A model generated the notes under the pieces. That model did no database searches. It had not been told where the DNA came from and saw nothing but the letters and a program-made list of their open reading frames with translations. Positions 1,703 to 57,312 of a stretch of DNA of 64,000 bases are shown piece after piece. Positions within the stretch are counted from its first letter, which is position 1. Each line of letters starts with the position of its first letter. Made by a program: the position numbers and the translations under genes. This DNA comes from Sphagnum compactum (Eukaryota), in the NCBI GenBank assembly GCA_965153455.1, contig OZ234493.1, positions 27,704,213 to 27,768,212 on the forward strand. Reading direction: 5' to 3'.

Positions 1703-1864
1703 TGCTCTGATCCAGAAGAGCAAAGGAATCTCAAGCTGAATGAGTGTCTCCTGGTTACTGACAGCATTCGGGAGGCAAGGCGCAGCGATCGCCAAGGATC
1801 CGGCAAGCTCGGAAGCGGCAAGCGGAACCCTAATGGCGATGGCGGCGACGCTTCTACCTCCCTG

Positions 1865-4575: not shown

Positions 4576-7500
4576 GAGACCCCTGACGATCGTCTCCCTC
4601 AATGCCAGAGGGCTGGGCAAAGACTCGCCCAAACAAAAGCTTATCAAAACTTGGATCACCTCTCTCCAAAACCCGCCGCAGATCCTCCCCCTTCAGGAGC
4701 ACCATCTAGACGAGCTGGGCATCTCTAATTCAACTAAGGGACTCGAATTCTGGCAAGGCAAGGCCTTCTGGAACCCGGGAATCCCGATGGGAAACTCTCA
4801 GCGCACCAGCGCCGCGATCGCCATCCTGGCGGACAAGGCGACCGCGCCTCTAATCATGGAAAATGGAATCCTAACTGAGGGGAGAGTTCAGTACATAACT
4901 CTCCACCTCTCAGACAGCTCCGAGCTGACTATCATCAACACTTACGCACCCAGATCCTCTAGGGATAGGGCCCCGGGCCCCCTTGTGGAAAAGGATAAGT
5001 GAAGCTAAGTTCACAGCCGACCACGTTATAATAGGAGGAGACTTTAATCACCTGGAAGAAGTCGATTGCAGAGGCAGGGCGGGGGAAGAAGGATGCACAG
5101 GAGGGAGGCCGCCTCCTGGCACCACCTGACCCTGCAATACGGTCTGATGGACGCCTAGAACTTGGATAGCTTCAGAAAGATGACAAAAAAAGACTACATA
5201 TACGACAACAGGAGAGTGGGCTCAGGGTTAGCCGTCTCCAGAATAGACAAGTTTCTTGTCTCACAGGAGATCGATTTCAGAGGAGGGAAAATTGAAGTCG
5301 CTCCCTCCATAAGAAGAATTTCAAACCATCCCCCTTTAGTCATGACAATATAGGGTCGCACATCCGCCCCGCCTACAGCTACTCCCTACTTTGAGTGCTC
5401 CCTCCTAAGGGAGGAAGATAGCAGGACTGTCCTCCTCGAAGCCTGGGAAGGCACAGAGCCCCCACCCAGACACGACACCGAGTGGCTGGGCTGGCTGGAA
5501 GCAGCAATTGACAGAGTACTCAAATGCAGTACTCGCCTAGCGAAGGAAAAAAAACACGCAAAAGGAACTCGATTCAGAGCCCTACAACAGAAAATCCGCC
5601 TATCATAAATACAACTTCAAAGTGACCCTGAGGATGAAGCAGTCAGGAGCATCCTCTCGGAAGCACAAGGCCACATGGTCGACTCCCTGCAAGAACAGGT
5701 AGCCCGGAACTATCAGCTCACCGCAGCAACCTGGTTTAGGTATGGCGATACCGGCTCCAAGCAGTTCTTTGATTTCCACCGCATAGGCAGGAAAAGGACA
5801 CCGCTTAAAGAACTCACAACAGACGACGGGGAAATCACGGGCTAGGCAGACCTGGCCCACTATGTGCGCTCCTTCTATATGCACCTCTATGCCTCGGAAG
5901 CACACGCCCCCAGCACCATTGAAGCCCGGGAGGTATGCTGGGCCAGCACCCCGACCAGGGTCTCTACTGAGATGAACATCAAGTTGATCAGAGAGCTCAC
6001 TCTCAAAGAGGTCTAGGACGCCATCACGTCGATGCCAAAGGACAAAGCTCCGGGGAGCGATGGCATCCCCACTGAGTTCTTTCAAGAATTCACAAAGGAA
6101 ATAACCCCAATTCTGCTCCAAGCGTTCAGAGCTATGCTCAGCACGGGGGCGACCTCTAAGCTGATCAACAAAGGTCTCATAACCTTAATCCCCAAGTCTA
6201 GAGACCATGCCAGACTAGGTAACTGGCGCCTGATAACCCTGTTAGGTAGTCCTTACAAGATCCTGGCCAAAATGCTTGCTAGGCGACTCCAAGTTTTCCT
6301 TCCAAGCATAGTCAGGCCCAGCCAGACCGGGTTTGTGGAGGGGAGGAATATCCTCGACAACACCTTCCTGGCGTAGGAGGCCCTGGACTGGGCTGAGGAG
6401 AGTGACCAGGACCTGGTCCTGTTATTTTTGGATTTTGAGAAAGCCTTCGACAGGATCGAGTGGGGATTCCTGTTCGAAGCCTTGGCTAAGCTTGGATTCT
6501 GCAACCAGTGGATCCACTAGGTGCGTTCCCTGTACCACTCGTTCTCATCGACGATCGAGCTCAACGGGGTGGTGGGGAGCAGCTTCCCCCTTGCCAGGTC
6601 AGTTAGGCAGGGGTGCCCGCTTGACCCCTATCTCTTTATCCTGGCCACGGATGTGCTCGGGCACATGTTAGATGACCAACGCTTTGGGGTGGAGGGTCTG
6701 TCCCTCCCGAGAGGAGGACGCATCATAGACCAGACCTTTGCGGACGATACCGCGCTCTACCTACAAGGCTCACGCTCTAACATGGATAGGGCTCAAAGAG
6801 TCCTGAACCTTTTCTGCAAGGCTTCGGGAGCTAAAGTAAACTCGAACAAGACGGCCGCGATATGGGCCAGCAGAAGAAGCAAAAATTGGGAATGGGGCCA
6901 GGAGGTGGGACTCCAATGGGTCCCGGAAGGCAAAGGGGTGAGATACTTGGGAATCCAGGTTGGATTCCATCTCCCCCCGGAAGCCAACTTTGCCAAAATG
7001 CTAATCGCGCTCAAGGGCAAGCTCATCAACTGGAGCACTTGCCGCCTCTCCCTAGCAGGGAGGATCCTGGTGGCGAACCAGGTGCTCCTAGCTTCCATGT
7101 GGTACCTGGCTGCGTGCTGGAATCCAAATCCTAGGATGTGCAGCCAGGTCTGAGGGGTCATGAGAAACTTCATATGGGGTGGGAAGGCCACCAACGCCAG
7201 AGCAAAGGTAAAGTGGGATACCCTAGTCCTCCCGACCACCAAGGGAGGGCTAGGGATCATCGACCCAAAAACCCAGTCGGAAGCATTCCTAGCAAAGCTC
7301 CTCATCAGGGGCCTCGCACCAGGAGGCGAACCCTGGAAGGAGCTCCTGAGGCACAAAGTCGACCAGGTCAGATTCTCGGTCCATGGCTCGGGCCCCAACA
7401 CCCAGGACATAAACTGGCTGTTTTCAGCCCCCAAACTCAAAAGACCACCGTGCTCCTTGTGGAAGAGCATACTAGGCGCCTGGTTGAGCGTGAGGCCGGG

Positions 7501-8932
7501 TCTGTGCAAATCAAAACCGACTAACATCGCGGAGTTGCTCAGGCAGCCGGTATTCGGGAACCCCCTCATCACCAACGCTTAAAGCAGACCCCTTGGACTC
7601 AGCGGCAGAAGCGAAAGAAACGCGCTCGCCAGCGCCGGCTGCACCAGGGTCAGGGACTTCTGGGACCCCGAGTTGCAAGAGTGGAAAGGCCTCTCTGCAC
7701 TTGGGGTGAGCTTCCACCCCGCCAACAGGCAGAACAAAGACCTCATCATCACCAGTATTCCATGGAACCCAGCCACCTTCAACAGCAGGCCGTAGGTGGG
7801 GGACTGGGTCAGCAAGAGGGAAGCTCACATGAATGTCTCGCATGAATGGGTCTATCAGATAACGGAAGCAACCCAAACCATGGCCAGCGCCAAGGAGTTC
7901 AGAAAATCCTCTCCTGCCGGTCGCATCCAAGCCACCAGCACTCAGAACATCTTTATCCCCTTGGAGGGATATGAGCCTGTCAGAGTGCTTGCCCATGATG
8001 GACATGGAGCAACGCTCAGGCCCGCCAAAAACCTGCTGCTCCCAGGTAAAAAACCCCCCATCTACTGGATTTTCGAAACTGGTTTCATTTCTGACCTCCC
8101 ATGGGACCCCGGAGATTGGCATTAGCAGAAAGCGCAAAACATGGGAGATGCCCCCTTCTTCGGCTACTCTACCAAGAGAGGGTACCAAAACGCCAGGAAA
8201 ATCCAGCACACCCCCAACATCATCTCCTTCATCCAACGTTTAAATCTGTGCAACTCCACGGTCGCTCAAATCATCGTGAGGATGTGGCACAACGCCCGCC
8301 CGTGGAAAGTCGGGGCACTCACCTGGCTAACCCTCAACAACGGTCTACCGGTGGGCACTTGGCTTCAAACGATGGGAATCCAAGCCCTTTGCAAAGGCTG
8401 CGAGCAAGGACTCCCGGAATCCGCTCAACACTGCCTCATGGACTGCCTTCCTGCTCAAATGGCGTGGAAAGCCTTCCTCCGAGTCTGGGAGGAGTGGGAG
8501 GCGCCCAACCGCCTCGCCATCACCTGGCCCTTTGTGCTCCTCGATGAAGCTGTGTTTGAGGAGGAGGACGACCCCCCGGACCTCCACTGTTACCACACTG
8601 GTGGATTCTCCTACTGAAGGCAACCTCTCGACATCCTAAGGAGCTTCCTCCTCTTCTACCTCTGGTCCGAAAGATGCCGAAGGCATTTTGACGACCAGTA
8701 CTCTCTCAAGAGAGTCTTACTCCAGGCCTGGGAGGCTACTGCCGAGGTCGGCATGGCCTCCTGGAAGGCCATTAGATCTTCTTACCAGAGTCGAGATAAG
8801 AACATTCAGAGTTGTATCAAAAAAGCCTTTAAGGCTGAATGGCTTCACGGCCACATCTTTGGGGAGGGCGGGTCTGCCATTTCGCAGCACTTGCTCCCCC
8901 CCTTGGATTTCCTCAATTTCTCTAATGACTGA
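4568..8932 (+). pseudogene. LINE ORF2 (APE endonuclease - reverse transcriptase - zf-RVT), disrupted
   Basis: Endonuclease motifs: LTIVSLNARGL, LQEHH, IIGGDFN, SRIDKF, SNHPP. RT motifs: KAPGSDG, NWRLITLL, DFEKAFDRI, VRQGCPL, FADD, YLG. C-terminal CKGC...ESAQHCLMDC. The ATG overlaps the ORF1 stop (ATGTCTGA). More than 10 premature stops plus a frameshift at the GGGCCCC duplication near 4970. Confidence 0.93.
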
Positions 8933-9316
8933 TGGGGCTGTTGCCTCCCTCCCCGCAAGGGGTTCACCTCTGAGGTTCAGGAACACTGTGGGGCTCACGC
9001 CGTCAGGTGGCCCTCCCTCGCAAGTACCCGCTTGTACAGAAACCTCTTCTATGACATAATAACCTCAGGGGTGGGCATTCTGTTGTGTGAAATGCCTTGT
9101 GTAGGGACCACACAGTGAGAAATTGTGTTTCATCATTTCCTGCCATACGAGCAGGAGGCTCCACTGTACAAAAAGGAGGCCCACTTTGCTCATGCACCCC
9201 TGCCAAGGCATCAACCTACACAGACATATCTCAAAAGATTTTCCAGTTGAATTTTGGAGTTGACAACACTACAATCTTGCAGGCCCATCGTGTACTCTTA
9301 CATGGTTTGGCGTTCT

Positions 9317-9403
9317 GAAACTTTCTCAAAAATCTTGACTATGTTCAAGTGTCCGTACTTGCATTCTAGGAACAGATCATAGTCAAGATTTCTGAGAAAA
9401 TTT
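9317..9403. other. Inverted repeat (hairpin), 22-bp core stem, 34-nt loop
   Basis: TTTCTCAAAAATCTTGACTATG (9322-9343) pairs with CATAGTCAAGATTTCTGAGAAA (9378-9399), one mismatch. Confidence 0.8.
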
Positions 9404-10815
9404 GCTGACATGGCATTCACTTATAGGCTCTAAGCAGAGCCATCTAGACCTTGTAACCTGGCTGTTCTTATCAGCCCCATAAAGTAGGTCCGTCAATAAC
9501 CAAAAATTGCTAAAATATCTAGTTCTTAGAACCAATCTTTACTACCATACCCTAGGGTCAGCTTCCACATTGACAAGATGAATATTTACATTTTTTCAAA
9601 AAATTAATTAAAAATCTCTTATCATTATTATTATTGTTATTATTATTATTCATGATCTAAGGCTATGATATTGTTATATGAGCAGTGAAATTATTCAGAT
9701 TGTAGGCTGCAATAATTATGATGGTTTTCCACACCTCAGATTCCTATTGCCACACAAATTTATTTTGCTATTTTAAGGATTATTTAATGATAAACTGGCC
9801 CTTGGGCAAAGTAGTTTTCTTCTTCTGTTTTCTAAGTTTTGTTTTGTTATGTAGGATCTGAAGCCAGAACTCGTCAGTGGTAAACACGGTCCAATGAGCC
9901 ACATTCTTGTGTGTGAAATTTTGCCAAATTGTGACATAGATCCAAATTTGCCATAACAAGATTCTATTATTTTAAAAGAACAATTTGCCAATTCCTTTTT
10001 TTGGCCTAAATTGCCAGGATTCTATCTCAGGCTGGAACACAAAGCCAAAAAAAAGGAGGATCCTTAATATTTTCAACATTCATATTTTGGAATAGACAAA
10101 TTTGGCTAAATCTTCTTATGGTTGATTACAACACCAGACATTTGAAAAATAATCCGTGCACCCAATGTGTTGAATTCAATATTGCATTGGAAAAACTTTT
10201 TTAGCTGGCTACCCCAAATGTTTTCTTTTGTGGTGAATTTTCAGGTCCTAGCAAAGAAAAAAAAGAAAAAATTGGAAATATTTTGTTGCGTGTTTCCTTG
10301 ATTTTTGGGGGAAAAAGTACATTTTTCAATGAAATTTTTTAGCAACATTTGCCATATCTAGACATTTTTCTAATCTGAGAGCAGTTAGTCGCCAGATTTT
10401 GACTATTTGCCATTTCTAGAATCCATTTCTAAGAAAGTTGTTGCCATCAATGTGCAACAATAAAAATCTGAAATTAAGGACGCTAGGTCAGATATAAAGA
10501 AACTGGTGATCCCAGCCAGTTGCATGAAAAACATCTAAGAACTGGCAGTTTTCATGAAAGAGCCTGCAAAGAACCGATGGTCATAAAGGTGAATTTTGAA
10601 ACTTTCAGAATTTTTGAGAACCAGGGTTATATACCAAATCCAGTTGTCTGGAATTTTTCACCCCTGTGTAACTGGGTATACATGGGGTTGATGCCTGGTG
10701 GTGGGTATCTTTGGTAGATTCTAATAACCGTATAACAATGCTTACTTTACTTGTTGTGGGTAAAAGTTTGTATTAAATTTTGTGGGATAACTCATACTAA
10801 TATGTTGGTAGAGAC

Positions 10816-11079
10816 CAGTGTTTTTTTTTTCCCCCCAATTTTGTGATGTTATTACATTCGCAATCATTTGCAAGGAGATTTAGCCATGTTTGGCTATAGA
10901 CCAGCTAGGAAGAAGAAATTTAGTAAAAAAAAAAAATGCTGGCTACTTGCTGTAACAATGTGTAGAAAAACATGGCAAATTTTTAGATTTTTTTCCAAAT
11001 TTTGGCAATTTCTTAAAAGGAATATTCAATAGATTTTATTTATTTTTGGAAACGAAATTCACTACAAAGAAAAGTGATG
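10816..11079. mobile_element. hAT-type MITE with 8-bp TSD
   Basis: Starts CAGTG and is flanked by GTAGAGAC at 10808-10815 and 11080-11087. Related copies lie near 10.0-10.15 kb, 16.13-16.26 kb, 28.24-28.51 kb, 28.75-29.03 kb and 29.2-29.31 kb. Confidence 0.75.
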
Positions 11080-14064
11080 GTAGAGACATAACCAACAATG
11101 TGCTATAACCAAAGAAAGGAAACATTAAGAAAAAAACATTTGGCTTTCATGCTTCATCCTAAAGACTAAATTTAACCACAAATTAGTGGCTACTTGAACA
11201 TATGAACCATCACCGCATGGTTGCACCTAGAATGAAACCTTAATAGTCCACTAGTGTTAGGTAGATATCACTTCTATTATCAAATTGTGCCAAATATATG
11301 GACAATTCTTTCGAAATCCAAACTAGGTGAAAGGGGGGCCATTTAGCTTAAGGACTATGGACTATGTTCTTACATAGTTATTAAAAGTAAAATATTTTGT
11401 AAAATCTAGTTAAAATCATGATTTACAAACCAACATTTAATTAAAAAAAATTCTTATGACCCAAAAAGATATTGCATTCTAATGTAATGGTGTACATATT
11501 TTTTTCACCTTTTCATTTTCAACTAATTTCAAGTCTTTTAAAAATTCCTTTAAGCAATGCAAAATAGTAGTTACATTATCTTAAAAGTGTTTTTGAATAT
11601 CCCATATTCATTCTATTCATTTCAAACTTTGTCAAATGTTCCCATGATACATCAAGTCTTGAAAATATTGATGTAAAACTTTATTCAAAAATTTCAACAT
11701 TAACTTAAATAACCATTTACCACAATAAAAATTAAACAATGATTATGTCTTGAAGTGTCTTCTTAAACCCAAATTCAAACCCCTCTTAGGCATCCATTGG
11801 AAATGATCATGACATGTATTTATAGATAGAAAGAATCAACAAAGTAGTTCAACTTAAGTGAACCCCACTAGACCTAATTGAAACCTAAACTAAACATAAC
11901 CAAAACCTAAACAAATGTAATTGAAACATAATTGAGCCAAATTGAAACTTAAACCAAACCTTATCAAAACAAAACTAAATGTCATCAAAACTCTACCAAA
12001 GCTCAATTAAACCATCCAAAAAGCAATTAAAACATAACATAGGCAAAGCTAGTTGAAATCTAACTTAATACCTTTTAAAAATATAAGCTAACAAAAATGA
12101 ATATATAATTTGAACTAGTTGAAATTGGTATTAAACAAGTAGATGATTTTCATTAGAACGTAGGTGATTGTTTGATGCAACTGCACATTTGCCTAAACAT
12201 TTGTAAACATTTGATAAAATTGTATTATTTGCAAGATTGTTTGAATGTTGGCACATTTAAAACATTAAGTTATTGTAAATTCAAATTAACCTTTGATATT
12301 TTGCACAATTTGCATCATGGAAATGAAAATGATGAAAATACGTACATTAACAATTTATGGTGATGCCATTTATTCAAGGAAGATTTAAGGTGATTTTATT
12401 GTGATATATTGGATGCCATAATATTTGCAATGCCCAATTCATGGTTGGAACAAGACCAATCATCAAGTAATGATGAAAGTAAGGCAAGAATGCCAAATGA
12501 GACTTTTAAACTTGGTTTTTGCAAATAATTAATTGAATTTACTAATAATTTTCATTAAATTATGAGCATCTCAAATCTTGACAATCATGATCAATTATAC
12601 ATAGAATCTAAGTGACCAATAATGCAAAAGTAAAAAAATTCACATCCTCAATAATTAAACAACACTTAAAATTCAAAATAAACAAAAAAATCATGATGCT
12701 AATGAAATTCCTTATATATATATATAGTGAATTTTAGATGCACAAATGTTTCAAGCAACTAGATGCATAATGTCTTGATTCATAAATCTTTAATTTAGTT
12801 GATAGCAAACATATTATTACATATAGGAAAGATATCCAAAACATTGGTAAATATGTGTATACTATTGTCAAAGAATATATTTTTCATTCAAATTTTCTAT
12901 GCATCTAAATTATATATAATATTTCTCCAAAAATTATAAAAATGTGAATTTGAAAACTCATGTGAAGATGTGTAAATATATCAAAAGAAAATTGATTTGG
13001 ACAAATGATTAAACTTAGATTTATGGAACTATATTATTAATTATAAACTTGATATAAAAATTCTTTCAATGTTGAACAAAATAGTAATGTGAAAACATGA
13101 AATAATGAGCTAGTCACGTCAAGGTTAAAGTCCTTTCCAAGGACTGCATTTTCCAAGTGACAAATTTTTATTGGTTTATACTGTATTTTTCATTTAGTTT
13201 TTCAAACAAAATATCAAATTTGAGGCCAAATATGATATGTAACATGATAAAAACTCAAATTGTTTTGCATCAAGCCTTAGATTATAATCAAATTTATAAC
13301 TTTACTTTGGACCATTATTACAAATTCAAAATTATAATAGTGCTTAAGGATGTTTGAATATCAAAATTTAAAAATGTATATGTATTTTTATTTTTTGAGT
13401 GTTTTGAACACATGGACCCCTTCTTGTGGAATATATTAAAATTCACAAAAAAATTGAAATGATTTGGTGAACATTTGATAAGGAAAAAAAAAATTTGAAA
13501 AAAAAAAACCACATGTCCACATGTTTTTTTTGAGTGCTTTAAATGTATAAAAGGACTCTTGAAACATGGTGAATTTTCATAAATTTTTTGTATTGGCAAC
13601 TTTGAAAGTATAAAAATTTATTGCAAAAATTAAATGAAGTTTTTGATATATAGTGTTCCCACGTTGATTTTTCAAAAAATTGAAAAATAGTTTTTAAGGA
13701 CTATCCACACATTCTGTGGCTCCTTATTTCATGCTTTCACCCTATAATGTTTAATTTCAATACATTTCAAATTTACACAAAATTTTCAATTACAAGGTTA
13801 ACGACAATATGATATTCATGAAAATGTTGTTAATATTTCAACCAACTTAAATTTGGTCCAAAATGTATTACCATGGATGTTGTACGACAATTTATTGATC
13901 ATAGTGTCTTTGAAAAGAAATTAAAATATAAATTCATTAGGAGAAAACACCTCATTTGCAATTAGGTGTTTCGACTATAATTTTATAAAAAAAATCCATT
14001 CTCTTATTTAATTAAAAAAACCCAAACTTGATGGTTAGTAACAAAATCAAAAATTTGCCCAACA

Positions 14065-14962
14065 TGTTGCAACCTTAACCTTGGGCTCGCAACGAAGGCA
14101 AGGGCTTGCAAAGGTGTAAGTTAATAATGAAGCCTAGGAGTCACATTTCATGCTCCTGGGAATCACATTTCATACTCCTGGAAGTGTAGGAGAGTGTGAG
14201 GGAATGAACCCGCACACTCCCAAGTGAGTTCCCATTTTGGGAATTGGAGTCCCAATGAACTCTCAAATTTTTAGATGGCGATTGTAGGGGTCAAAAATCA
14301 TTAGATTAAAGATTTCATTATACCCTTGGAAAGTAGATGTTTAAAATGGGCTCGCATGACCCATTTGCGTATTTACATAAGTTATGGTCAAAAGAAGGGT
14401 CAAGAGTCAAAGTGCTAATTTGACTCCCAACCATTAAAAGTTGAGAATCACCCTAATTTACTTGCGTAGGTGGCGTGCCACATGCCACTGGAAATCTCTC
14501 GATGAAGGTTACAACTTTGCTTCCGACCTCACCTCAATCGAAGGTCTGCACAAAAAGGTATGAACTTCCAAGGTCGCGAAAGTCCTAATTTTGAGAATTT
14601 CGGGACAAAATGACATTTGGGGCAGGTCCCGTGGCCAAGCACAGAGAATACTATAAGGGGAAGGTGATGGCTTTCCCCAAGTCCGGGCCGTGATGAGTCT
14701 TGTGAATCTGTGTTTGCATGTGGTTCGTCCGTGCACCAAAATTGTTCCAACTATGCACTAATCAACTTGTTGTTTGGTTTGTGCAGGTCTATGTGAATAA
14801 TTGACCCGCTTGTCACTTATCATAGTCCCCATCCCGGACTCCAGCACACCCCTTTACCTTCGAAGTGCTGTGAACCAGGGAGTGTACCTCAACTCCATAT
14901 CCTTCCGATGTTTTCACTTTGGATTCGCAATTGATTCTATCAAAAAGCTTGGGGGTGCGTCA
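14065..14962. mobile_element. Solo LTR (~900 bp), TG...CA, 5-bp TSD CAACA
   Basis: TGTTGCAACC...GGGGGTGCGTCA, flanked by CAACA at 14060-14064 and 14963-14967. A second copy in opposite orientation lies at 53076-53987. Confidence 0.85.
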
Positions 14963-17369
14963 CAACATTAATGAATACCTTGCAAAAGGACATGTAATCA
15001 TCATGTGCATATTGAAAATGACCATGTCATTTACATTTTTGATATAATGACACACTTGGTCCTTCCCCTAATGGAAAAACTAAATATGTGCACCTTCTAT
15101 GTACATAGGAAGTAGATGCATTGCATTGAAAAAATGTACAAGTTTTGAAAGGGTATACAACAAATATGGCATGCCTCAAGGATTCAATGGTGACATGATA
15201 CTTCATGGAAGAAACATGTATGCACTAGTTTTAACCAACAAGGTGGAGGATATGGGATTTTGACAAGGAAAAATTAGGGAGGTTTTGGAAGGAGTTTACA
15301 AATTTTGAAGCTATTAACAATGCATATGGATCTTTTCAAGATTACAAATTTAACTTTTTTCAAAATCCTTGATATGGAATTTTTTCCACAATCTTCAAGT
15401 TGGTTTTAACACAAGAATTAAAACATCTCCCTATGCTTTAAAAAAATGGAAATCTATTGAGTAAAAGATTGTTGAAAGACAAATAAAAAGAAATCCTTTT
15501 CATGTCAATTAAATTCAATTTTCTATTCAATTAGCCGCAACATGCACCATTGTAGTACATGGGTGACTTCAATGTGAAATCTATTATTTTGTATTTTACC
15601 AAAATTTTGAACAATTATTAGCCTTTTTTGTCGAAAATTTCACACATGCAATCAAATTCATAAAAAGCACATTTGAAGGTAACCAAATTTGAACTTTGGC
15701 CTAGTCCATTCAAATGTATTAAATGTGAACCATCTAACTACAATGATAACATGAAACTTGTCACAATTATTTTACTTTTGATAATCATATTCCTTACTGG
15801 TTGAAAATTTCAAAATTAAAAATTCATATGCAAAGTTAAAAATTTAAAAATATATTAATTATTTGGTACACAAGTGCTAGTTGCTTAGGTACTATGGTAT
15901 ACACCATGGATAAGGTTTATTAAAAAAATGTTTAACATTCAACCCTAGTGGTGTAACATAATAAGATATGGTTTATAATGTTTAAAAACAATAAATTAAC
16001 ATTTACATTTATTTTTTCCATTAGTGATTTTTTTCCATTTCATGAAAAACATTTGAATTTTTTTGACATAAATTCCCTTAAATTTTTTTTTTGGGCCATA
16101 AAAAGTTTCAAACATTTGCAAAAAATCACCACAATTGCCTACAACATGAGATGGTGTTAAGTTTTTTTTACTTTCATATTTTGAATATATCCAAATTTGT
16201 CTAAATATCTTAATGGATGATCACCACTTAATAAAATCACAAAATTGAAAAAAAAAACATTGTTTTCCATTATCAAATCATTTTTCTCAAGTTGGATCAA
16301 TTGTTAATTAAAAAAGAAGGGTGGATTAAGAACAAATGCACAATATGGATTAAAAATTGCTTTTTTGAAATCATACCGTACATAAAATATGTAATTATAT
16401 AATACCTTAATACTTGTTTTTAAAAATTACATTTCCAAAATATTTTGATTAATCCAAATTAATTAGCATCCATATTCTCTATAAATGAAATAAAAAATAA
16501 TTCATGCAAATAAAACATTTGCACCACTTTATCAATTAAACTTCATATTTAATGTTGTTAAGGATAATTTATGTAAAACTATGTTATTATAACAAAACAT
16601 TATGATACAAATTGTGGTGTCAAACTCATTACACGTCTTTTTTACATAAATGCATGACAAACAATATATATTGCAATTTATAAACTACCTAGAATGCAAA
16701 CATTTTATTGCAAATCAATATAATTAAAACCTATTACAAAAGAAATAACTTCATATTGTCCAATAGTAATAATCAAAGATTTTACCATAAGCATGATGTT
16801 AACAAAAACAAATCAATCATCAACACTACAAAATCTTATGATTAAATGCAAACTAAAACCTAGCTTTTTCAAAAACATCACCTATTAACAAAACCCAAAT
16901 TGATCATATTGAGACAAATGCATCAACACAACAATGTTGTTTCAAATAGACACAAAGTTATTGAATAGATCAATATAAACCTATATATTTTGCATTAGAA
17001 GTTACCACATTACCTATATGCCATATTTTGTTTTACCATGAAATTCATCTTTCAAAAAACATTGTTAAAAATTCATTGAAAAAATTTAATTCTCATGATT
17101 TTTGAGCTAAAATAATAAAGATTAAGGACATATATAATAATTATAATTATAAAAATAAATTATAAAATAATTTCATCAAACCTATAGGCAGGGCTCGTCT
17201 GTCCCAAATACATTGTTTATCTTAGTTTTCTTTGATTCAATTTCTTGATCTCAGTTTCTATATTTTATACAAGAGATATTACATATTATATATTTGTTTC
17301 TATTGCAATTAATGGGTTCTACCAGGTCCTGGAACGGCATAACCGGTGCTCTCCACCATTGATTCACCT

Positions 17370-17800
17370 CACAAGTGGAACTGGGAAAACCAAAATGGGT
17401 CAAAGCCTGGTAGGGTACAATAGACCGTTCCATCAGGTGGTACCTAACAAGTGCTACTGGGGACTGTTCCAGATCAAGCCTGTTGATTTACATCACAAGT
17501 GGAACCGGCAGAACCAAAATGGGTCAAAGCCTGATAGGACACGAGAGGTCATTCTGTCAGGCGTACTGGAACAGTCCGCAGTAGGACCTGTTACTGGGGA
17601 CTGTTCGAGATCAAAATCGGATTTCATACCCGCCGTGAGGAATGGACAGAACCAAAACGGGTTAAAGCCCGGTACGCGGCAAGACGCCTTTCCGTCAAGT
17701 GGGACTTACAGGTTCTACTGGGGACTGTTCCAGATCATAACTGTTGTTAACCCGGGGTGTTGACGTCACAAGTGGAACTGGCAGAAACCAAAAGTGGAAC
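17370..17800 (+). repeat. Degenerate tandem repeat, ~125-140 bp unit, 3 full copies plus a partial one
   Basis: CACAAGTGGAAC...ACCAAAA...TACTGGGGACTGTTC(C/G)AGATCA recurs. Unit starts at 17370, 17494, ~17630 and 17767. Confidence 0.8.
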
Positions 17801-17849
17801 CAGCGCGCACGTATCGAGGGAAAGCACGACTCGTGGGAGTGAGAACCGT

Positions 17850-18314
17850 GGTTAGTTTTCACGGTGAGCTGATTGTAACCGGAGTTACGCCATGGCCAAA
17901 GAACGCGAAGAACGCACGGCGGCTTGTCTTGTCCGTCGCGCGACGGACTCGCGTTTTCTTGCGCGAATGGCCGACATGCTTCCTCGCATTTCTTTGAACT
18001 TTGTTGTTGCGATTTTCCTGTCGCAAGCGAGCATTTTGCAAGCTTGATCAAGCTCTAGAAGAAGCTGGAAATCTCGAGGAAGGCATCGGTTGCAATGAGG
18101 AACATAAATCTCAAAGGAGACCCGGCAATGATGTCATGATGAGCAAACGCTGGTGGGTGCGCGGGCAAGAAGCGGGGATGATGATGATGATGAGGATGAT
18201 GCTAGGGCAACAGGAAACAGGAGTCCGGGTTGTTCAATACAGTCTCGGCGTCTGGACCATCTTCAGGTGTAGAAACAGAACGTTAAGGTGGGAGTAGTGT
18301 AGTTGTGGGAGGAG
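17850..18314 (+). promoter_or_regulatory. Putative promoter / 5'-UTR exon of the RLD/PRAF gene (left in original orientation)
   Basis: CpG-rich, UTR-like sequence with an (ATG)n microsatellite. It ends in ...GGAGGAG, which joins GTACAACAG (a splice donor) when 18315-22028 is re-inverted. Confidence 0.5.
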
Positions 18315-21300
18315 CTTTTCAAGAGCTTCCACAAGCTGGGGATGTGAAACATCACAGTCTACCCCATGGCCTAGTTGGCCCCCTGACTCCTCTCCCCAAG
18401 AAAAAACTTCCCCATGTTTTGTCACCAGTGCAGCATGTCTTCCTCCACAAGAAACATTTTGCACATCTAGTACTACACCAGCCTCCAAAGGCTTGGGCAA
18501 CAGAGCATCCAATTTGATATCCCCAGGGATGCCAACTCTGCATTCACCACCTCCAAGTACACCATCTCCTATCCCCTCACCCCACAATAAAATGGCACCC
18601 AAGGCATCCCCCTCTTCATGCCCTGAACCATGGCTTGAGGAACTAACAGCACTTGACATGCTTATTCTAGAGTTGTCAGTCTGGATTCCCCCACCCAGTC
18701 TTGTATGCGCAGCCACACTGTCTGAACCTACATCAGAAGTGCCTAAATGCATTGATCCACCAATGGATCCTCCATCAAAAAATTTGCTCTTCATTTTAGC
18801 TAATAACTTTTCCTCTGATGAAAAATTCTTTTCTATTCCTCTGTGACAAGGACTCCCAAAGAAACTGAAAACTTTGCGAGCATCTCCACTATCCTGCAAG
18901 ACCCACAGAAATGGTCATCTTAGAAAGTACAACATGCAACCAATACATATGTCAACTTAGAATCTGTGTTTCCTGCAGGATCAGACAAACACCTCACTCA
19001 ACAAAGTTCACTTCACAATTCAACAAAGATTCCTTAGATACACATCTTCTAGAGTTCAGAGAAATTAAAATTGGTGAACTCAGAACAGAAAAGAGTCACT
19101 GGCTCTCAAAGCCAGTTAGAAATGGCAGAAAATGAACAACTTATCTGAAATAAGTACCCAGAATTTGTCCATACTTCAAACTTTAGTCAACCTTTAGAGT
19201 TGAAGGATGACCCAATAATAAGGCCAGCAAAAAGGAAAAAGAGGAGATCCCAATATGAAAACATACAGAAGAAACCAGAGCAGCATGAACATAAGAGATA
19301 GTCTCAAGCATGTTGAGTGACCTTCAACAGCAACATGCATGGTTGTGTTGACCTACCGTAAAATCCCCACCGACTTGATCAGCTATTGGCAGGAGGTGGT
19401 GATCAATGTCAGACATTGAGCAACCTAATGAGTTTAAGTCACAAATCTTGCAGACTCAGTCATAGTGCTCACAAAAGAGATGGAAATTACAAAGGAAATC
19501 AAGATATGAGAAGTAAACACAAAAGAAGAATCTAATTAGCAAGGAAGACAATAGAGATACAACACTGGAAACAAAGTGGGCTTTGAAAAGATCTGCACTC
19601 CGGACTAATAAGTGTTTGAAAGAACCATTTTGAAGATTCCAAATGTGGAAACACTAAGCAGAAATCTTTCTTTGTTAGACAAACCTCTGGTTCATTTTTA
19701 TAGTAACTTTGACAGTTTTCCTTTACTCCTCAGAAGACTTATTAAGTTTGTCTTGAACTATGAGGAACCCTAAAAAAAGAAGAGGTGTCATAGCAAAATA
19801 TAAGGCCATAATCTAGCTGAAATTTACACAGATAGGATGCTGCTGCAGCTGAAACACTGGCCTTTCTTATACACTGGTTGGCAACCACTTAATGCCTTAA
19901 GCAACTTCAATCGTGCGGTACATGCTGTCATCATGCAGCCTTCTTCACATCATTGTGCTCAGTGAAAGAAGCACACCTGATGCAAGCTGTTAAAGCTTCC
20001 AAATGGTGAGCTCAGTTGCAAGGTTTTTCTTGTCCAACCAATAGGGCTGCTGGCATCAGAGGTCCTTTCGATCTTCCCATGAGATCTTAATTTCCGCATT
20101 TGACAACCAGAGATCAAAGCCTCAAGGCCACAAAACCATACCTCAGCCTCTTCTTTGTCCTTGCAGATCTGTATGGAGAATACACATGTATGAGATGGCA
20201 GAGAAAACTCACAAAAAACACTTTGCAGGTAACATGACAATGGGTGGGGTCATAACCTTATGAGAGTCACGAACAAAGTTTCAGACCATCAACTTCATCA
20301 TGATAACAGTGATGAGCTGCCATGACTCCCCGCTGACTTCATCAGCTCCCAATGGTGGGTGTAGATGAGTATGTAATAATCCACCCTAAGTTGGACAAAC
20401 CCTTATGCAAACATCTGCATTGGAAGCAATGGGAAGACTCAGTGATGATGTTGGCTGGCACTTAAGAGACACAGCTAATTAGGAAAGCCATTATTATCCT
20501 CATTCAAGCTGCAACAAGCTTGTGAGGGTAAGCCTCATTTTGTTTTAGCTTGTCCTGTACACAGAATGCATTCAGGCGAGCTCAAATAGAGAGAAGCTTG
20601 TTCAGGTTAACAGTGCTAATGTTCAGTCTACCCATGACAGAATGCCAGTAGTCAGATGTTTTGGTTAACATATCATATTGTGATCATGACCTACAAGAAT
20701 GGGTGACACTTGGGTTGCAAGGTGTAATTTGAGGGCATGAACAACTACCACATCAAGTGAGCACTCCTCATTGGCATGAATCAGAAAAACTGATAGATAT
20801 TCCTTCTCTAGCTCATCCAGGGTAGTTCAGTCTACCCATGGCAGAATGCAAATAGTCGGATATTCTTGTTAACATATCATATTGTTCTTTATGACCTACA
20901 GGACGAGTGACACTTGGGTTGCAAGGTGTAATTGAGGGCATGAACAACTACCACATAAACTGAGCGCTCCTCATGGCCATGAATCGGAGAAAATGACTGA
21001 TACTCCTTCTCTGGCCATGGATACCTCTGAAAAATAGCCTATTGCAGAAAAAAGACATAGGAGGCTAGTTTGAGAATATTCCAAGTTAAATCAAGGCAGT
21101 TGTTGAAATAATCAAGCAAACCAGAACTAACTATGAACTTTCAAGCTTGGTTTTGCAAAGAAGATGATGACTCACAGTGCTTTCTCCTGGGACAATCCTG
21201 GATACTGTGTTCAACCAAAGCTTGTTCTCTTCCCTTCCAAAGTACAAAATCAGCAGAGTTTCATCCTGCAAAAAAAAAACCCCAAGGAAATCTTATTCTG

Positions 21301-21473
21301 CTGCTACAAGGCTACTCTCTGGTTAGAGATCCAGTAAAATAGCTCACAAGTTTCTGCTGGAAGGTGCATCCCAAGAAACGACTTACATTGGATAGTGTGA
21401 AGAGGCAAAACTTAGGTTTCCCCTGGCACCCATACTTGAGAAGCTGCGCACCCTTCTTCAGAGCAGTGATGGC
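18315..21473 (-). pseudogene. RLD: RLD/PRAF gene, N-terminal part (PH domain and first RCC1 repeats), inverted relative to the rest of the gene
   Basis: GT-AG exons on the minus strand: 21473-21387 (AITALKKGAQLLKYG..KPKFC), 21265-21176 (DETLLILYFGREE..VSRIVPG), 21038-20952 (AIFQRYP.PEKEYQSFS), 20168-19977 (ICKDKEEAEVWF.GL.ALIS) and 18893-18315 (SSAVSSSSHGSGHEEGDALG...WGEESGGQLGHGVDCDVSHPQLVEALEK). The first coding exon was not resolved. Confidence 0.9.
20621..21012. repeat. 204-bp-period tandem duplication including part of a PH-domain exon and its donor site
   Basis: GTTCAGTCTACCCATG.CAGAATG starts at 20621 and 20825. Both copies contain GTGACACTTGGGTTGCAAGGTGTAAT and GAGGGCATGAACAACTACCACAT. 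Confidence 0.9.
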
Positions 21474-22028
21474 CTTCACACATTGAGAAAAGATGTCCCA
21501 GTATGAAATCAGGTGATGCTGCCGATAACAACAGTGTCTTGGAACAACACAACCTGCAACCCTCAGTTTGATTGCAATTCCATCTGAATTTGATTTAAAT
21601 GAGATTCAGATCCCAAGATCCACATCCATACATGCAACTTATGAGGCTAAATTCACAGCACAAAATAGTCTAGTTTCTAATGTGCATGCAGATTATGCCT
21701 GAGAACAAAAACCTCTCTGGTTTGCAAGAGCTCCACATGCATAATGGCATCCTGCAGCAAGGCCTAATGGAGTTCTACCAATTTGTGAAATTGCCAAGGC
21801 GATTGAGAATATTGAAATTTGGACAGCATTCCCCTGGCATTTCCTCTATGTACAATTGGTTACTACAGCAGCAGCCTGGCTCTGATGTGAGCTTTTCCGT
21901 TGCTGGCAGACTACCTCTGTCTCTCTGTGGAAGCTCGGCTTGGGGGAGAAAGGCATTCAGTCCTTTGACGGAGCTAGTAGACTTGACGAAAGAAAGAGGA
22001 AGGAAGGAAGGGGGGCATTCTGTTGTAC

Positions 22029-25000
22029 CTGTTCATTGAGTTTGTTTCATGTGGCCAGTACCATTTGTGTGCAGTCACTTTGTCTGGGGACCTCTACACT
22101 TGGGGTGATGGCACACATAATTCTGGTTTGTTGGGTCATGGCAACAACATCAAGCCACTGGATGCCCAAACGAGTGAATGGGCCTCTAGAAGGCATAAGG
22201 GTGTCCTCTATTTCTTGTGGTCATTGGCACACTGCATTGGTCACATCTACTGGCCAGCTTTTCACTTTTGGTGATGGGACTTTTGGTGTGCTTGGACATG
22301 GAGACAGGAATAGGATGTATGCTCCAAGAGAGGTGGAACCTTTAAAGGCACTTAAGACTGTACAGGCAGCATGTGGGGTGTGGCATACAGCTGCTGTGGT
22401 TGAGGTGATGGTGGGCTACTCTAATGCAAGTACCTGTATGTCTGGCAAGCTGTTTACCTGGGGGGATGGGGACAAAGGAAGACTTGGCCATGGAGACAAA
22501 GAACAGCACTTGGTGCCTACATGTGTAGCTGCACTTGTTGACCACAATTTTCGACAGGTTGCATGTGGCTATAGTTTGACAGTAGCACTTACAACAGTAG
22601 GACAGGTTTTCACAATGGGTAGCACAACTTATGGACAACTAGGGGATCCAGAGGCAGATGGAAAACTGCCAGGGCTAGTGGAGGGCAGACTATGGGAGGC
22701 TTATGTGGAGGAGATTGCATGTGGGGTATACCATGTTGCTGTCCTGACTCAGAAGACAGAGGTCTGTACATGGGGTAAAGGGGCTAATGGAAGGCTTGGT
22801 CATGGAGACACACAAGACAGGAGTACTCCCACTCTAGTAGAAGCACTGAAAGGTAAGCAGGTGAAGAGTATAGCTTGTGGTGCTAGCTTCACAGCTGCTA
22901 TTTGTCGACACAAATGGTTGTCAGGGGCTGACCAGAGAGTGTGCTTAGGATGTTGGCAGCCATTTGGGTTCATCAGGAAACGGCACAATTGCTACAACTG
23001 CGGTGCTGTATTTTGTCATGCTTGTAGTTCAAAAAAGGCTTCGAAAGCTTTATTGGCTCCTAATCCAAACAGGCCATACCGTGTTTGTGACCCCTGCTTA
23101 AGCAAGTTGAAAAGGGCTGCTGAATCTGGAGTCACTGTTGGCCCCCTGTCCAGAAGGGTAGCCCCTAGCCAATGGCCAATTGAGGTTAGAGACAGTTTGG
23201 TTCAAGTGGAGCCCAAAGTTCCAAGAGCACAGCCACCACCATCAGAATCAGCCACAATTGTTGAAGCAGTTAAACATATAGACAGGAAACCTGTGCCAAA
23301 GCGAATGAAAAAACCTGAATCTTCTTCCAGCCGTGTTGCTCCTGCACCAAGTGTTGTTTCACCATGCCATCCTGGAGTACTGTGGATGTCCCAACCGGTT
23401 TCAACTCAGAATTTCAGGCAACAAACTCCTCAATACCCAAACTTAAAATTGCCTCCTCTTACTCTGTCCCTTCACCTAGGGCTGTTTCCAGAGCAGTGTC
23501 ACCTCTGTCAAGGAGGTTGAGTCCCCCAAGGGCCACAACACCCACTCCAACCATCAGTGGCCTCACAGTTACAAAGGCAGTTGTTGAGGATCTGAAGAAG
23601 ACCAATGCCACCTTAAGTGCTGAGAATATGAGTTTCCAGTCACAGGTACTTCACAATCCTACCTTCTACAGTGGAATTGCAAGGTGTCTAGTAATTGAGA
23701 TGAGCTAATTCTGTTAAGTCCTGTTGTTGACTTAATTTCCTGTGAGCCTTTGGGCTGTCAAGATGCCCTGAGACATGGAAGATGGAAAATGTTTTTTGCT
23801 GAACACTCAGTTGCTGATATGTTGCAGTTAGCTTTATATGCAAAAGCTTACCTGTAGTGGAAGCATTATGGTTGCACACAGGGTGTTCACACTTTAGAAG
23901 GATTTTGGCATAAGTGTACTGTACTTCCTTGGCTTGCACTCATCTCTTCTCATGTCATCCTATAAACTGTCTCTTTGAATTAGAAATTCATGGTATGGTC
24001 CATCCTACAGATTGAGAGCCTTTCTCACCAGCTTCTAAATCAAGAGAAGGAGCTGTAGCATTCCTCTCAAAAACTTCAAAATGCTATTGCAATGGCTACA
24101 GAGGAGGCTATCAAATCTAGGGCTGCCAAAGAAGTTATCAAGTCTCTCACTGCCCAGGTACTAACAGTTCATGTGGATGGTATGTTAGAATGGTAGTGTG
24201 GTTTTGTTCATCATCATAGAGATCAAAACATTTGTGTGTTGCACTGCAACCTTTAGCACAAAGGTTTTGTAAAGTTTAAGTTTTGGGGACTTCTGCTTAA
24301 AAAAATACCCGTGTTCATGTTATGTATTTGGATTGTACATTCAAGTTGTGACAATAGCCATAATTATAAAAGGTCACAAATTGATGTTCTACACCCTCAA
24401 TTATGTTTCAGTTTTGTGGACACTCTCACGGCTTCAGAAGTTGAGAGGTTTCTCTATCCAAATGAGTGTGTCTTTTGGTGCATTTTGCAGCTCAAAGAGT
24501 GGGCAGATAGATTCCCTAAAGGTGCCTCTAGACATGGGAGATCAGTGTCCAGATCTGCTGGTCATCCTGATATGCCAAATGACAGTCATCTGATGGCCAC
24601 TGCTGACATGGTGCAACAACCTGATGGAGAGGGAGCTCCACTGTTGCCTCGCAAATACAATGTCAGCATGGCAACCAAGAATGTTCATGAAGTGGATGCA
24701 AATGGTGTTATCAGCCCCCATTCAGTGTCAAGTCCTCCTTTCCCTGAATCATACAATTCCATGGATCCTGGGTCTAGTTCAAGTCCTTGTGATGCTACTG
24801 AGAGTAATTTTGGAGGAGTACGAGGCAGGGCACTAGCAGCATGCAAGTAGCTACCACTGGAGAAGGTGAGAGAAACAGGCTTGAACAGGCACGACCAAAT
24901 GAGGAAGGGGGCAGAACAGTGGAGAGCTCCTTCTCATCAGAGAATGGAAGAGAAACTGAAACAGAGTGGGTAGAACAAGATGATCCTGGTGTCTACATCA

Positions 25001-25433
25001 CACTAACCACATTATCGGATGGAGGCAGAGACCTCAAGTGTGTGCGATTCAGGTAGTTTGTCAATCTCATATTCCCTTTCCTTTTGTCTTTTTTCCTGCA
25101 CATTCAAAATTTCATGTGCAATCAAGACTTTCTGCTGTCAAATGTTTCAGTGCAGTGCACATGTAAAGCTATTTCCAATACTACATGGACATTCTGTTTG
25201 AATGCTGTATGAAGAAACTCTGCTCCAATAGAAGTTAATTGTCTGTTAAGCATTGGCTTATTTTCACCAGTGAATGATGTCATGTACCCTGCAGTCGAAA
25301 ATGTTTCAGTGAAAGGGAGGCAGAGCTATGGTGGGCAAACAATCAGGCAAGGGTCCATGAACAATATAACTTGTGTGGGCGAGTTGACAGGGTCAACAGT
25401 ACAACAGAACTTCATTCAGCATTCCATAGATAG
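22029..25433 (+). pseudogene. RLD: RLD/PRAF gene, C-terminal part (RCC1 repeats, FYVE finger, coiled coil/BRX-N, BRX domain)
   Basis: Exons: 22029-23645 ([53 protein letters not shown]), 24011-24157 (AAKEVIKSLTAQ), 24491-25052 ([14 protein letters not shown]...LKCVRF) and 25295-25433 (SRKCFSEREAELWWANNQARVHEQYN). Lesions: +1 nt at ~22152, frameshifts near 23360 and 24830, TAG at 24056-24058. Confidence 0.92.
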
Positions 25434-27984
25434 ACATTTCCTGCAAGGCACATTGTTACCATCTGACACACATAGATACTGATCATACCTTGCGGAAAAT
25501 CTCTTAGACCTCATGTCAACAGACTTGTAATATTCAGAACTCTATGTCCATAAGCAGACGTAACTCTTTCTCTGCAATGAAAATTCAATTGTGGTTTTCC
25601 TTGCCATTTTTATCCAGTGACCTGCTCTGTAGAAAGCCCGAAATCAGCCTGAAATAATGTTGCTAGGGTGAGTCATGGGGGTTGGTGTAAGGAAGAGAAG
25701 AGAGCTCATAGCTTAGTTGTGAATTTCAATGCTGACATGCTACACTTTTTGGCAATATCACTGCTCCTCTGCAAAATTTGTTTGTTTTCTATTTCATCAT
25801 GGAAGCATGATGATGCCATTACATGTGAGGTCAATCCAAGGCTAATGCCCCAAAATGTTTCCAAAACTCACGATTGGACAATCTAATATTAGGGATTTGG
25901 TTAAAGGTAGATTTGGTTAAAGGGATGTCAACACCACTTCAAAATTGCTTGCCATCATCATAGTAGATATCCCAGTGGAATTTTGTGAAGAGAGTAAATG
26001 GAAAATGGATCCCTCAGATGAAGAGGCATTTCACCTCATAAAGTTGCTCCAAAAGTTTTATCAGTATCAGTTGGAACCCTTTATAGAATGCATCAATCAG
26101 AGCTCCAGAAGTTCGAATATGATTAGCTTGAATTGTTTGAAAAATGGCATCACTGGAGATCCCTCACCAAATGATTTGGCATGCAATTCAACAGATGAGC
26201 TCAATATTTCAGATTCAATGGATTTCTCTGTAAACAACCAAAATGTGACAATCAGGGACATTGATGTCTGGTTGTGATCAACAAGTTTGTCAGTTTGTCT
26301 GTGACAAACAAAAAGTGATGGTGGGGATGTTGGCATCTGATTGCAAAGAAATTCCATGAACAGATTAAATGGATTTGGGATTATGCCCATGAGAGGATCC
26401 AGTATATGTTGTTGCCAGTATTGAGAGAAAATTCTGTTCATAATGCCCCTTCCATTCTAAGTCTGCTCAGTGATGCAATAGACTTTCAAGTGGCAACTTG
26501 ATGGTAACATCCTGATCTGTATGAAAACAAGGCACTTGCAATTGCAAATTCTATATAGAGTGCAGGACTGAATGCCTGCACCTGACAAAAAATATATGGT
26601 CCATTTTGTGCACAATTATGTTTCTATATACCTTTCAGTAATAGAGCCCAAGCAAGGCAGCTCCCCCAACACCCTGAAAATCACCAGTTCCATCTGTAAG
26701 CCCTTTGACAAGCAGTGGAGAGGAAAATAGTATCAGTTAGCATCCTCAAAATCCACAGGACTGAGTATGTGTGCGGTTGTAGACAGTGCATTGGGATGCC
26801 TGAGGGAAACACAACCTAATGTGTTTGCATTGACACCCAGTGTGGTATCCTTTTAAACATCGCACTTCCTCACCTGGGAGGCAGTTTTTACCTGTGGACT
26901 CGCATACTGCAGATAGAAACAACCATTGCCCAATTCAATTTACTTACAATTTGCTTCCTAGCCTTGAACTTTTAGGGCAGGTACACAATATAGCAACTGA
27001 TAGGAGGAACATCTCCAAGAGCTCCAGGAAAAACCCACAATTCGTTGTACATGATCCATTTTCTAACAAAAGCACCCAGCTCATCCCTGAGATAAAGAAT
27101 CTAATAACAAAAGTAGTTTTGAGATAAGAAATCACTACTAGCTCGTGCAAAATAGCCACGATCGTGAGAGAAGGACAGGCTCTGCCAGGGGACAACCTTT
27201 ACCCATTCCAGCCTTAACTACACAATCTCTGACAGATGTGATTTGTTTAATAATGAGATAAATAATGACATGGACATGAAAAGAAGGAACCCAGATGTGC
27301 AGGACAAGATGTGAGATTTTAAGGAACTTACAGACAGGATTTTGGGTTTTAGGATCTGCTGGTGGTGTTAGCATGCGCCGCACAAACTGCTGGCCATGAA
27401 TGTCTCGTGATGTTACCTGCATTCAAAACATGGTAGAATGAACAGCTAAGAGCATTTTCTCAAGTAGCTGAAGACATTGTGGAAATCTGAAGATATTGTG
27501 GGTGCCAAAGAATAGGGAGACAATAACAACCCTCAGCTAGAATCTGTGTCTACTGCAATCTGGAGAGGTGGTCATTTGGGGTTTTCGTTGGGTTGGTACC
27601 TCTACTGATTGAGCATCGTCAAGGCCTTCAATGACCATAAATTTCCTGCCAACTTCTGCACTTCCAACACCCCTCACATGTTGGTCAAAACATCATCATA
27701 AACTGAGAACTCTGGACATGGATCTTTGCACACAAAACAGAGTTTTGAAGCCCAACCAGTGGGTGGGTGGGTGGAATGGGGTGGGGGGAAGAAGAGCATG
27801 CACCTGTTGCCACCAACAACAGCATTACGATCCCCATGACATCCCGGTAGTGCATTGTGTCACAAAGCTATGGGGGAACAACAATAAAATGTTCACTAAC
27901 TTTCCTTTCTCCACAAACAAATAGACCCAAGAAAGTGTCGATAAGAATGTGAGCGAAATGGATTGCTCAACAAAGTTTATTGCT

Positions 27985-27985
<1 letters not shown>

Positions 27986-28016
<31 letters not shown>

Positions 28017-28119
28017 GTAAGTGATGTAAGAAGAGGATTTAGATATGTGCAAAATAGTTGTGCAAGAGAGACACATACATACATGCAGAGAGAGAGAGAG
28101 AGATGCGAGAGAGAGAGAG
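27986..28119. repeat. (CA)n and (GA)n microsatellites
   Basis: CA run ~27986-28015 and interrupted GA run ~28088-28119. Confidence 0.95.
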
Positions 28120-28235
28120 TAAGCTTGGCGACAACTGATTTGGTCTGTCAGAATCACTGATTAACACCAAATGGTGGGCCAGAATTAGAAAAAAAGATTT
28201 CGAATAAGAGAGACAGACCGTAGAGACTCGAGACT

Positions 28236-57025: not shown

Positions 57026-57312
57026 TGTTAGAAATACTATTTGTTTCTAATTCCCAATGTTGATGAATGTGTTAAACATTCATCAAAAGGATGAATAGTA
57101 TACACATCCTTGTAGTTGTTTGGTTAGGGTTTAGAAGTGGAGACTACTTAAGGTTTAGCGGCGGCTAGGGTTACGGTTAGGCGGCGGCTAGGTTTAGGGT
57201 TTGGTAGCGGCTAGGGTTAGGCGACGGCTAGGGTTAAGGTTTGGTGGCGGCTACTTCAGGGTTAGGAGATATTATATAATGGAAAGGTTTTGAATTGTCT
57301 TTCATTGTCTTT
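57026..57312 (+). mobile_element. Partial 5' LTR of Copia copy B, inserted in gag of A and itself interrupted by copy C
   Basis: Starts at the exact LTR terminus TGTTAGAAATAC and lacks one G-rich repeat unit relative to LTR A. Confidence 0.9.

Follow-up and report, generated by a model that had tools for sequence, protein, structure and literature searches.

How a single gene comes to be read from both strands of one locus is the question raised by a stretch of 64,000 nucleotides (nt) of the Sphagnum compactum genome (assembly GCA_965153455.1, contig OZ234493.1, positions 27,704,213 to 27,768,212 of the forward strand; hereafter the window), in which one copy of a PRAF/RLD-type gene (PH-RCC1-FYVE-BRX) spans approximately 18.3–25.4 kb. 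A first-pass annotation, made from the letters of the sequence, had placed the PH exons and the first RCC1 repeats on the minus strand and the remaining RCC1, FYVE and BRX exons on the plus strand, and had attributed this layout to an intragenic inversion. The analysis described here leads to the view, held with a probability of roughly 80%, that a germ-line inversion of 3713 nt took place by end joining inside a PRAF/RLD pseudogene that was already free of selective constraint.

A gene on two strands and its collinear relatives

The distribution of the gene over both strands was confirmed by Pfam and by a tblastn search with P0001, a protein of S. tenellum (1156 residues) that contains a PH domain (PH_12) at residues 15–122, an RCC1-like region at 268–650, a FYVE domain at 655–721, BRX_N at 931–958, and BRX at 1057–1112. 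Residues 16–358 of P0001 are encoded on the minus strand (21476..18321) and residues 364–1130 on the plus strand (22038..25421), and the residue numbering continues over the break, 358 being followed by 364. A plus-strand open reading frame (ORF) at 21886–23520 (544 residues) matches RCC1 in five stretches (5.2e-60) and FYVE (PF01363, 1.3e-15) at residues 343–409, an RCC1 family match is also located on window 21987–22274, and the minus-strand ORF at 18234–18914 matches RCC1 (1.1e-12) and RCC1_2 (5.2e-07). The BRX domain is divided between the ORF at 24808–25056, which covers profile positions 1–31 of 56 (PF08381, 2.2e-12), and a remaining part identified by tblastn, in which residues 1088–1130 of P0001 align at 25293–25421. 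Pfam gave no match in the minus-strand ORFs at 19959–20249 and 21312–21605, where the exons are short; the PH region was recognized by homology, as four minus-strand exons align to P0001 residues 16–167 with 63–83% identity. A protein search with the plus-strand part returned 2806 proteins at E ≤ 1e-30, of which the best named matches come from Sphagnum, namely P0001 and the 935-residue S. fallax protein P0004, followed by proteins of other mosses, liverworts, and vascular plants, as expected for DNA of a Sphagnum-like moss. The window gene belongs to the land-plant PRAF/RLD family as a pseudogene and has no intact ORF: its ATG is deleted, its 5′ half is inverted, and three frameshifts and one internal stop interrupt the remainder.

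The ancestral arrangement was read from related loci. When metagenome contigs were scanned with the minus-strand exon, 41 loci were identified, of which 12 (L001–L012) were aligned to window 10001–32000, the other 29 (L013–L041, 46–67% protein identity) lying outside this detailed alignment. In all 12 aligned loci, both halves of the gene are collinear on one strand, and in four of them (L001, L002, L003, and L012) the left flank of the window is also syntenic. The comparison with L001 is the most direct: its positions 1419–4734 correspond to window 14963–18321 in forward orientation (blastn), positions 8565–4825 correspond to window 18320–22038 in reverse (95.9% identity), and positions 8577–11077 correspond to window 22035–24539 in forward orientation again (97.2%). 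The same block is reversed relative to L003 (94.6%) and L012 (93–94%), with both flanks forward. In addition, L008–L010 are collinear intact paralogues that are approximately 85% identical to the window in the large exon, L009 matching P0001 at 97–100%, and L004–L007 are collinear intact paralogues at approximately 79–82%. Because all 12 aligned relatives are collinear, four of them with the syntenic left flank, the window carries the derived, inverted state. The first-pass proposal of an intragenic inversion within one gene copy therefore holds, and both the reality of the inversion and its polarity are well supported.

A bare head-to-head layout could also be produced by two partial copies of different paralogues lying side by side, and a phylogeny that separated the two halves had been named beforehand as a finding that would speak for such an origin. 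The two portions of the large exon, one within the inverted block (576 columns) and one in the plus-strand flank (1597 columns), were each used for a maximum-likelihood tree with 11 rows; L002 and L012 were left out as identical to L001 and L011, respectively, as were L013–L024, whose DNA matches are to the 3′ part of the exon only. Both trees place the window in the same four-row clade with L001, L003, and L011, with 100/100 support, and the whole 3.7-kb block, introns included, is 94–96% identical in reverse to the stretch between the same flanks in L001, L003, and L012. An origin from two paralogues is refuted by the agreement of the two trees together with the reversed match of the block, and we assign it practically no probability.

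Followed in the original direction of the gene, the minus-strand part begins with the last 6–7 nt of exon 1 (22029..22035, codons E and Q), a remnant delimited by the junction alignments, the remainder of this exon, including the ATG, having been deleted. According to tblastn, the PH region starts in exon 2 (21387..21476; P0001 residues 16–45, 83% identity to P0001), continues through exon 3 (21176..21265; residues 46–75, 77% to P0001 and 97% to P0004) and exon 4 (20949..21038; residues 76–104), and ends in exon 5 (19977..20168; residues 104–167, 75%), which also encodes linker. The first part of the large exon (18321..18896; residues 167–358, 78%, E 2e-88), detected by tblastn and Pfam, encodes linker and the first RCC1 repeats and ends at the 3′ breakpoint. 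Its rest is found on the plus strand at 22035..23648 (residues 364–901; Pfam, and tblastn from 22038) and encodes RCC1 repeats 3–7, FYVE, and a further linker. Downstream on the same strand are exon 7 (24008..24160; residues 900–950, BRX_N region), exon 8 (24488..25050; residues 949–1087, the start of BRX by tblastn and Pfam), and a last exon (25284..25433, from the ORF at 25278..25433) with the rest of BRX.

To the left of the block, the plus-strand segment 14963..18321 is the original upstream region of the gene together with its presumed 5′-untranslated region (5′-UTR); it has retained the ancestral orientation and is collinear by blastn with L001 1419–4734 at 90.4% identity. Two AT-rich stretches (GC 0.25–0.36) stand out in the left flank, 13077–16350 being without a counterpart in L012 and 14066–14962 without one in L001; they are probably lineage-specific insertions. 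At 17359–17800, 0.5–1 kb upstream of the left breakpoint, there are three to four diverged tandem units of approximately 124–138 nt with internal inverted arms, which predate the inversion and are unrelated to it, since they are also present in L001, L003, and L012.

Base-by-base reading of the junctions

Reverse alignment to L001, L003, and L012 delimits the unambiguous inverted block as 18322..22034 (3713 nt, minus strand), which contains the exon-1 remnant, intron 1, exons 2–5, and the initial 576 nt of the large RCC1 exon. The block had first been given as 18315–22028, with both ends approximately 6 nt too far left. At the left join, the upstream sequence runs through ...TTTTCA and the reverse-complemented RCC1 exon starts with CAAGAGC..., so that the two share a 2-nt microhomology, CA, at 18320..18321 in the three-line alignment with L001 and L003. 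On the right, reverse-complemented exon 1 extends through ...CTGTTCA and the large exon restarts with ATTGAG, which leaves a 1-nt microhomology, A, at 22035, or an imperfect one of 4 nt if A[A/T]TG is counted. The junction alignments with the relatives contain no filler or extra sequence at either join. Both microhomologies (CA and A) are located at positions other than those of the 2-bp AG/CT homology proposed previously.

The inversion had also been described as clean, with no bases lost, whereas 107 nt net, including the ATG, are missing relative to L001, L003, and L012. The last bases of the left flank form the motif CTTTTCA. In the relatives, this motif is positioned 52 nt upstream of the ATG, and the 90 nt that come after it in L001, L003, and L012, ATG included, are absent from the window. 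Together with the next 10 nt, these 90 nt encode exon 1, MAEQ[A/C]FLETLECDIEQ, which is identical to the 16 N-terminal residues of P0004; in the relatives, this exon directly precedes its GT donor, ...DIEQ being followed by GTACAACAGA, and the donor is retained in the window at 22027–22028 on the minus strand. At the other break, 11 nt that stand in the large exon of the relatives between ...CTCTTG and ATTGAG... ([V/A]ASN codons) are absent from the window. When the overlaps are counted, the losses amount to approximately 93–96 nt at the 5′ break (the ATG and codons 1–13/14) and 11–14 nt at the RCC1 break.

This reading also accounts for the coding junction that had made the inversion appear clean. 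Re-inversion of 18315–22028 was tried and abandoned: P0004 and P0001 read AASN and AATN at this site, flanked by VEAL/VDAL on one side and IEFVSCG/TEFVSCG on the other, where the re-inverted window would read EKLF, and at least 7 of the 12 bases would need to change. Because at least 7 of 12 bases differ under any codon choice in a gene that is otherwise 86–97% identical to P0004, the 12 junction bases are not descended from the ancestral ones. The EKLF codons, which stand where the relatives have [V/A]ASN, are the reverse complement of a 5′-UTR hexamer plus the exon-1 remnant, and it is a coincidence that the 12 nt take the position of the lost bases and preserve the frame. Likewise, the sequence GGAGGAG|GT, taken in the first-pass annotation for a 5′-UTR splice donor at the opposite end, was never contiguous, its GT being the real exon 1 donor in the relatives. 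The hexamers at 18315–18320 (of 5′-UTR origin) and 22029–22034 (from the end of exon 1) match each other at five of six positions in direct orientation. Models of a staggered-cut duplication and of a hairpin (palindrome) were considered for them and dropped, as the orientation is direct rather than inverted and each hexamer has an ordinary ancestral origin in the relatives.

The losses bear on whether the inverted block might be an artefact, in which the assembler or a chimeric long read had flipped 3.7 kb of a genome that is in fact collinear. The inverted state has a single witness, and none of the 41 metagenome loci is identical to the window. The window, however, contains no N, neither breakpoint has a repeat that could mislead an assembler, and both joins combine losses relative to three related haplotypes with microhomology of 1–2 nt, which are signatures of cellular repair. 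Since a mis-oriented block would retain all of its bases, an assembly error is considered very unlikely.

With respect to mechanism, a review (PMC13516404) treats breakpoint microhomology as diagnostic and presents repeat-mediated non-allelic homologous recombination and transposons as the remaining main ways in which inversions arise. No pair of inverted repeats is located at both breakpoints, either among the 15 pairs in the window, in agreement with the first-pass statement that the breakpoints are free of repeats, or among the 25 longest of the 138 pairs in L001. Recombination between flanking inverted homologous repeats was rejected on this basis, within the window and those 25 L001 pairs. 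A transposon-mediated inversion was rejected as well, there being no transposon end at the joins, because both flanks match the relatives right up to them. What is found is a collinear ancestral state, no long inverted repeats or transposon ends, microhomology of 1–2 nt, and small deletions. A combination of two breaks, small losses, and microhomology of 1–2 nt is what non-homologous or microhomology-mediated end joining classically produces, and we infer end joining as the repair pathway. The earlier suggestion of blunt end joining is accordingly kept as to the joining and given up as to its bluntness, in view of the losses and the 1–2 nt of microhomology.

Under this reading, two DNA breaks would have occurred, one in the 5′-UTR/exon-1 region and one in the large RCC1 exon at the [V/A]ASN codons, and non-homologous or microhomology-mediated end joining would have reinserted the intervening piece in reverse. 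Processing of the ends would have removed approximately 93–96 nt (the ATG and codons 1–13/14) from one break and 11–14 nt from the other, the ends being joined via CA and A. The event would have taken place in the germ line after the split from L001, the closest sampled relative (approximately 96–97% nucleotide identity), in a paralogue already without purifying selection, and in functional terms would have done no more than damage a dead gene further.

Replication-based template switching, through fork stalling or through microhomology-mediated break-induced replication, could also have given rise to a real inversion, in place of the joining of two double-strand breaks. Such a process is compatible with microhomology joins plus sequence loss, and the 2-nt and 1-nt (imperfect 4-nt) microhomologies with losses at both ends of the block fit it. 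Templated additions often accompany replicative rearrangements, and two joins with small, resection-sized losses are the textbook picture of end joining; neither join contains templated insertions, duplications, or extra switches. The sequence data do not truly discriminate between the two processes, and template switching is regarded as unlikely.

Decay of the paralogue and order of events

The first-pass annotation had reported further frameshifts and a stop, and these were located by aligning each exon to the intact paralogue L009. The rest of the large exon carries a +1 frameshift at 22152 and a −1 frameshift at 23364, exon 7 carries a CAG>TAG stop at 24056–24058, and exon 8 carries a −1 frameshift at 24839; all four lesions are private to the window, being absent from L001, L003, and L012. 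These relatives carry lesions at other sites: stops occur in three exons of L001, several frameshifting deletions and a stop are common to L003 and L012, and L011/L012 are without approximately 0.8 kb (the counterpart of window 19725–20537) holding the exon for P0001 residues 104–167. Common to all four copies are an in-frame 3-nt deletion at 23134 and a 7-nt deletion after 25421 that leads to an early stop at 25431–25433. Part of the 90-nt PH exon recurs as a tandem duplicate, with a period of approximately 204 nt, in the following intron (20746..20812, minus strand), where it was detected through the repeat families D4, D6, D9, and D10 and as second blastn matches; among six sequences compared by blastn, the window, L001, L003, and L012 have this partial copy and the intact L009 and L007 do not. 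The tandem duplication of approximately 204 nt that carries this partial copy occupies window 20621–21015 and is a candidate for an early lesion of the lineage.

Relaxed selection, which had been proposed from substitutions in conserved PH residues together with the lesions, was borne out by ratios of nonsynonymous to synonymous substitution (dN/dS, omega) of approximately 1 or more on three terminal branches. Pairwise dN/dS within the clade is 1.0–1.6, except for a value of 0.70 between the near-identical L003 and L012 that rests on 20 changes, and that between the intact paralogues L009 and L007 is 0.27. Branch-private changes counted over 1143 codons number 42 nonsynonymous and 5 synonymous on the window branch (p = 1e-8 for omega ≤ 0.3, p = 0.055 for neutrality), 33 and 7 on the L001 branch (p = 2e-5 and 0.46), and 35 and 7 on the L003 branch (p = 7e-6 and 0.37). 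Omega ≤ 0.3 is thus rejected on all three branches and neutrality on none. Because dN/dS is approximately 1 or more in all three lineages, constraint was most likely lost before they split, and the inversion would have struck an already dead gene later, on the window branch only. Alternatively, each of the three lineages may have lost constraint independently. The first-pass annotation had left open whether the inversion destroyed the copy or followed its decay, and the data favor the second option, given that the relatives are broken elsewhere and evolve at dN/dS of approximately 1 or more.

The reverse order, in which the inversion inactivated the gene and the frameshifts and the stop came afterwards, would agree with several features of the locus: the four point lesions are all confined to the window, it and its relatives have no disabling lesion inside a domain in common, and the inversion removed the ATG and split the RCC1 propeller. 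It is less easily reconciled with the non-inverted L001 and L003/L012, which were independently broken by stops, frameshifts, and, in L011/L012, exon loss; with the rejection of omega ≤ 0.3 on each terminal branch; and with the 7-nt deletion with its early stop and the partial PH-exon duplicate that all four copies have in common. Inactivation by the inversion itself is therefore judged rather improbable, and an end-joining inversion in an already unconstrained pseudogene is preferred.

Several points nevertheless weigh against this preference. The window branch, with an omega of 2.5 and p(neutral) = 0.055, lies at the edge of neutral expectation, and there is no unambiguous ORF-breaking, domain-internal lesion common to all four copies, so that the inversion could have been the first of the five private lesions to break the ORF in the window lineage. 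Microhomology of 1–2 nt with flanking deletions also arises by replication-based template switching, so that the pathway is not proven. The five-of-six match between the two hexamers is without explanation and is treated as chance, a probable coincidence. Finally, the inverted state rests on one assembly, the closest of the 41 loci having 94% protein identity and approximately 96–97% DNA identity.

Genomic setting and known counterparts

The window is rich in transposons, as indicated by Pfam matches on its ORFs to a LINE-like element (long interspersed nuclear element), a MULE (Mutator-like element) transposase, and two copia elements. The GC-rich region 2614–8617 (0.54–0.56), with plus-strand ORFs matching DUF4283, RVT_1, and zf-RVT, is probably a LINE-like non-LTR (long terminal repeat) retroelement. 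A 368-residue ORF at 41206–42312 contains a MULE transposase domain (1.6e-06) and belongs to a Mutator-like element, and two Ty1/copia-type bodies (gag, integrase, RVT_2) lie in opposite orientation at 56517–59822 (plus) and 60245–63999 (minus), the second exiting at the end of the window. A GT/CA dinucleotide microsatellite at approximately 27945–28160 appears in several reading frames as C/V or T/H runs.

In itself, a small end-joining inversion in a gene that was already dead has little biological weight. Its value, a modest one, lies in the base-by-base ancestral record of a natural inversion, from which both the loss during repair (107 nt) and the microhomology used can be read. It also provides a caution for reference-free reading, since an in-frame and correctly spaced junction was built here from unrelated UTR and exon-1 remnants. 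It is conceivable, although in our view remote, that the retained upstream region (to 18321) drives a chimeric RNA that would be antisense for the PH exons and the first RCC1 repeats, turn to sense for the remaining exons, and regulate the working paralogues; in the large exon, such an RNA would match the intact paralogue L009 at approximately 85% identity. If this were true, it could feed small-RNA or antisense regulation, and the scar would have a lineage-specific regulatory role.

The closest annotated counterpart is P0004 (S. fallax BDL97_08G069500), which is not inverted, is 86–97% identical to the window exon by exon, and has the same unusual PH-region substitutions; unlike the window copy, it is collinear and has kept its ATG and AASN codons. 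P0004 is 100% identical to blocks of L012, with frame changes between the blocks, and its 935-residue model omits the exon for residues 104–167 that is deleted in L011/L012, so that it looks like a pseudogene patched by an annotation pipeline. The decay of this PRAF/RLD paralogue across several Sphagnum-like lineages and the nature of P0004 bear on counts of RLD genes in mosses.

The PRAF/RLD architecture of PH, RCC1-like repeats, FYVE, and BRX is described in PMC6941992. The window gene has the same domain order and content as the land-plant PRAF/RLD proteins (Arabidopsis RLD1–8), its PH domain being assigned by homology to P0001 residues 15–122. It differs from the members of that family in its missing ATG, the inversion of its 5′ half, its three frameshifts, and its single internal stop, and its paralogue lineage is decaying in every sampled relative. 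Compared with end-joining inversions among plant structural variants, which have the same two repeat-free breakpoints, 1–2 nt of microhomology, and small deletions, the window shows no mechanistic difference; the rearrangement is an ordinary end-joining inversion, distinguished by being small (3.7 kb), intragenic, located in a pseudogene, and accompanied by an ancestral state that can be read base by base.

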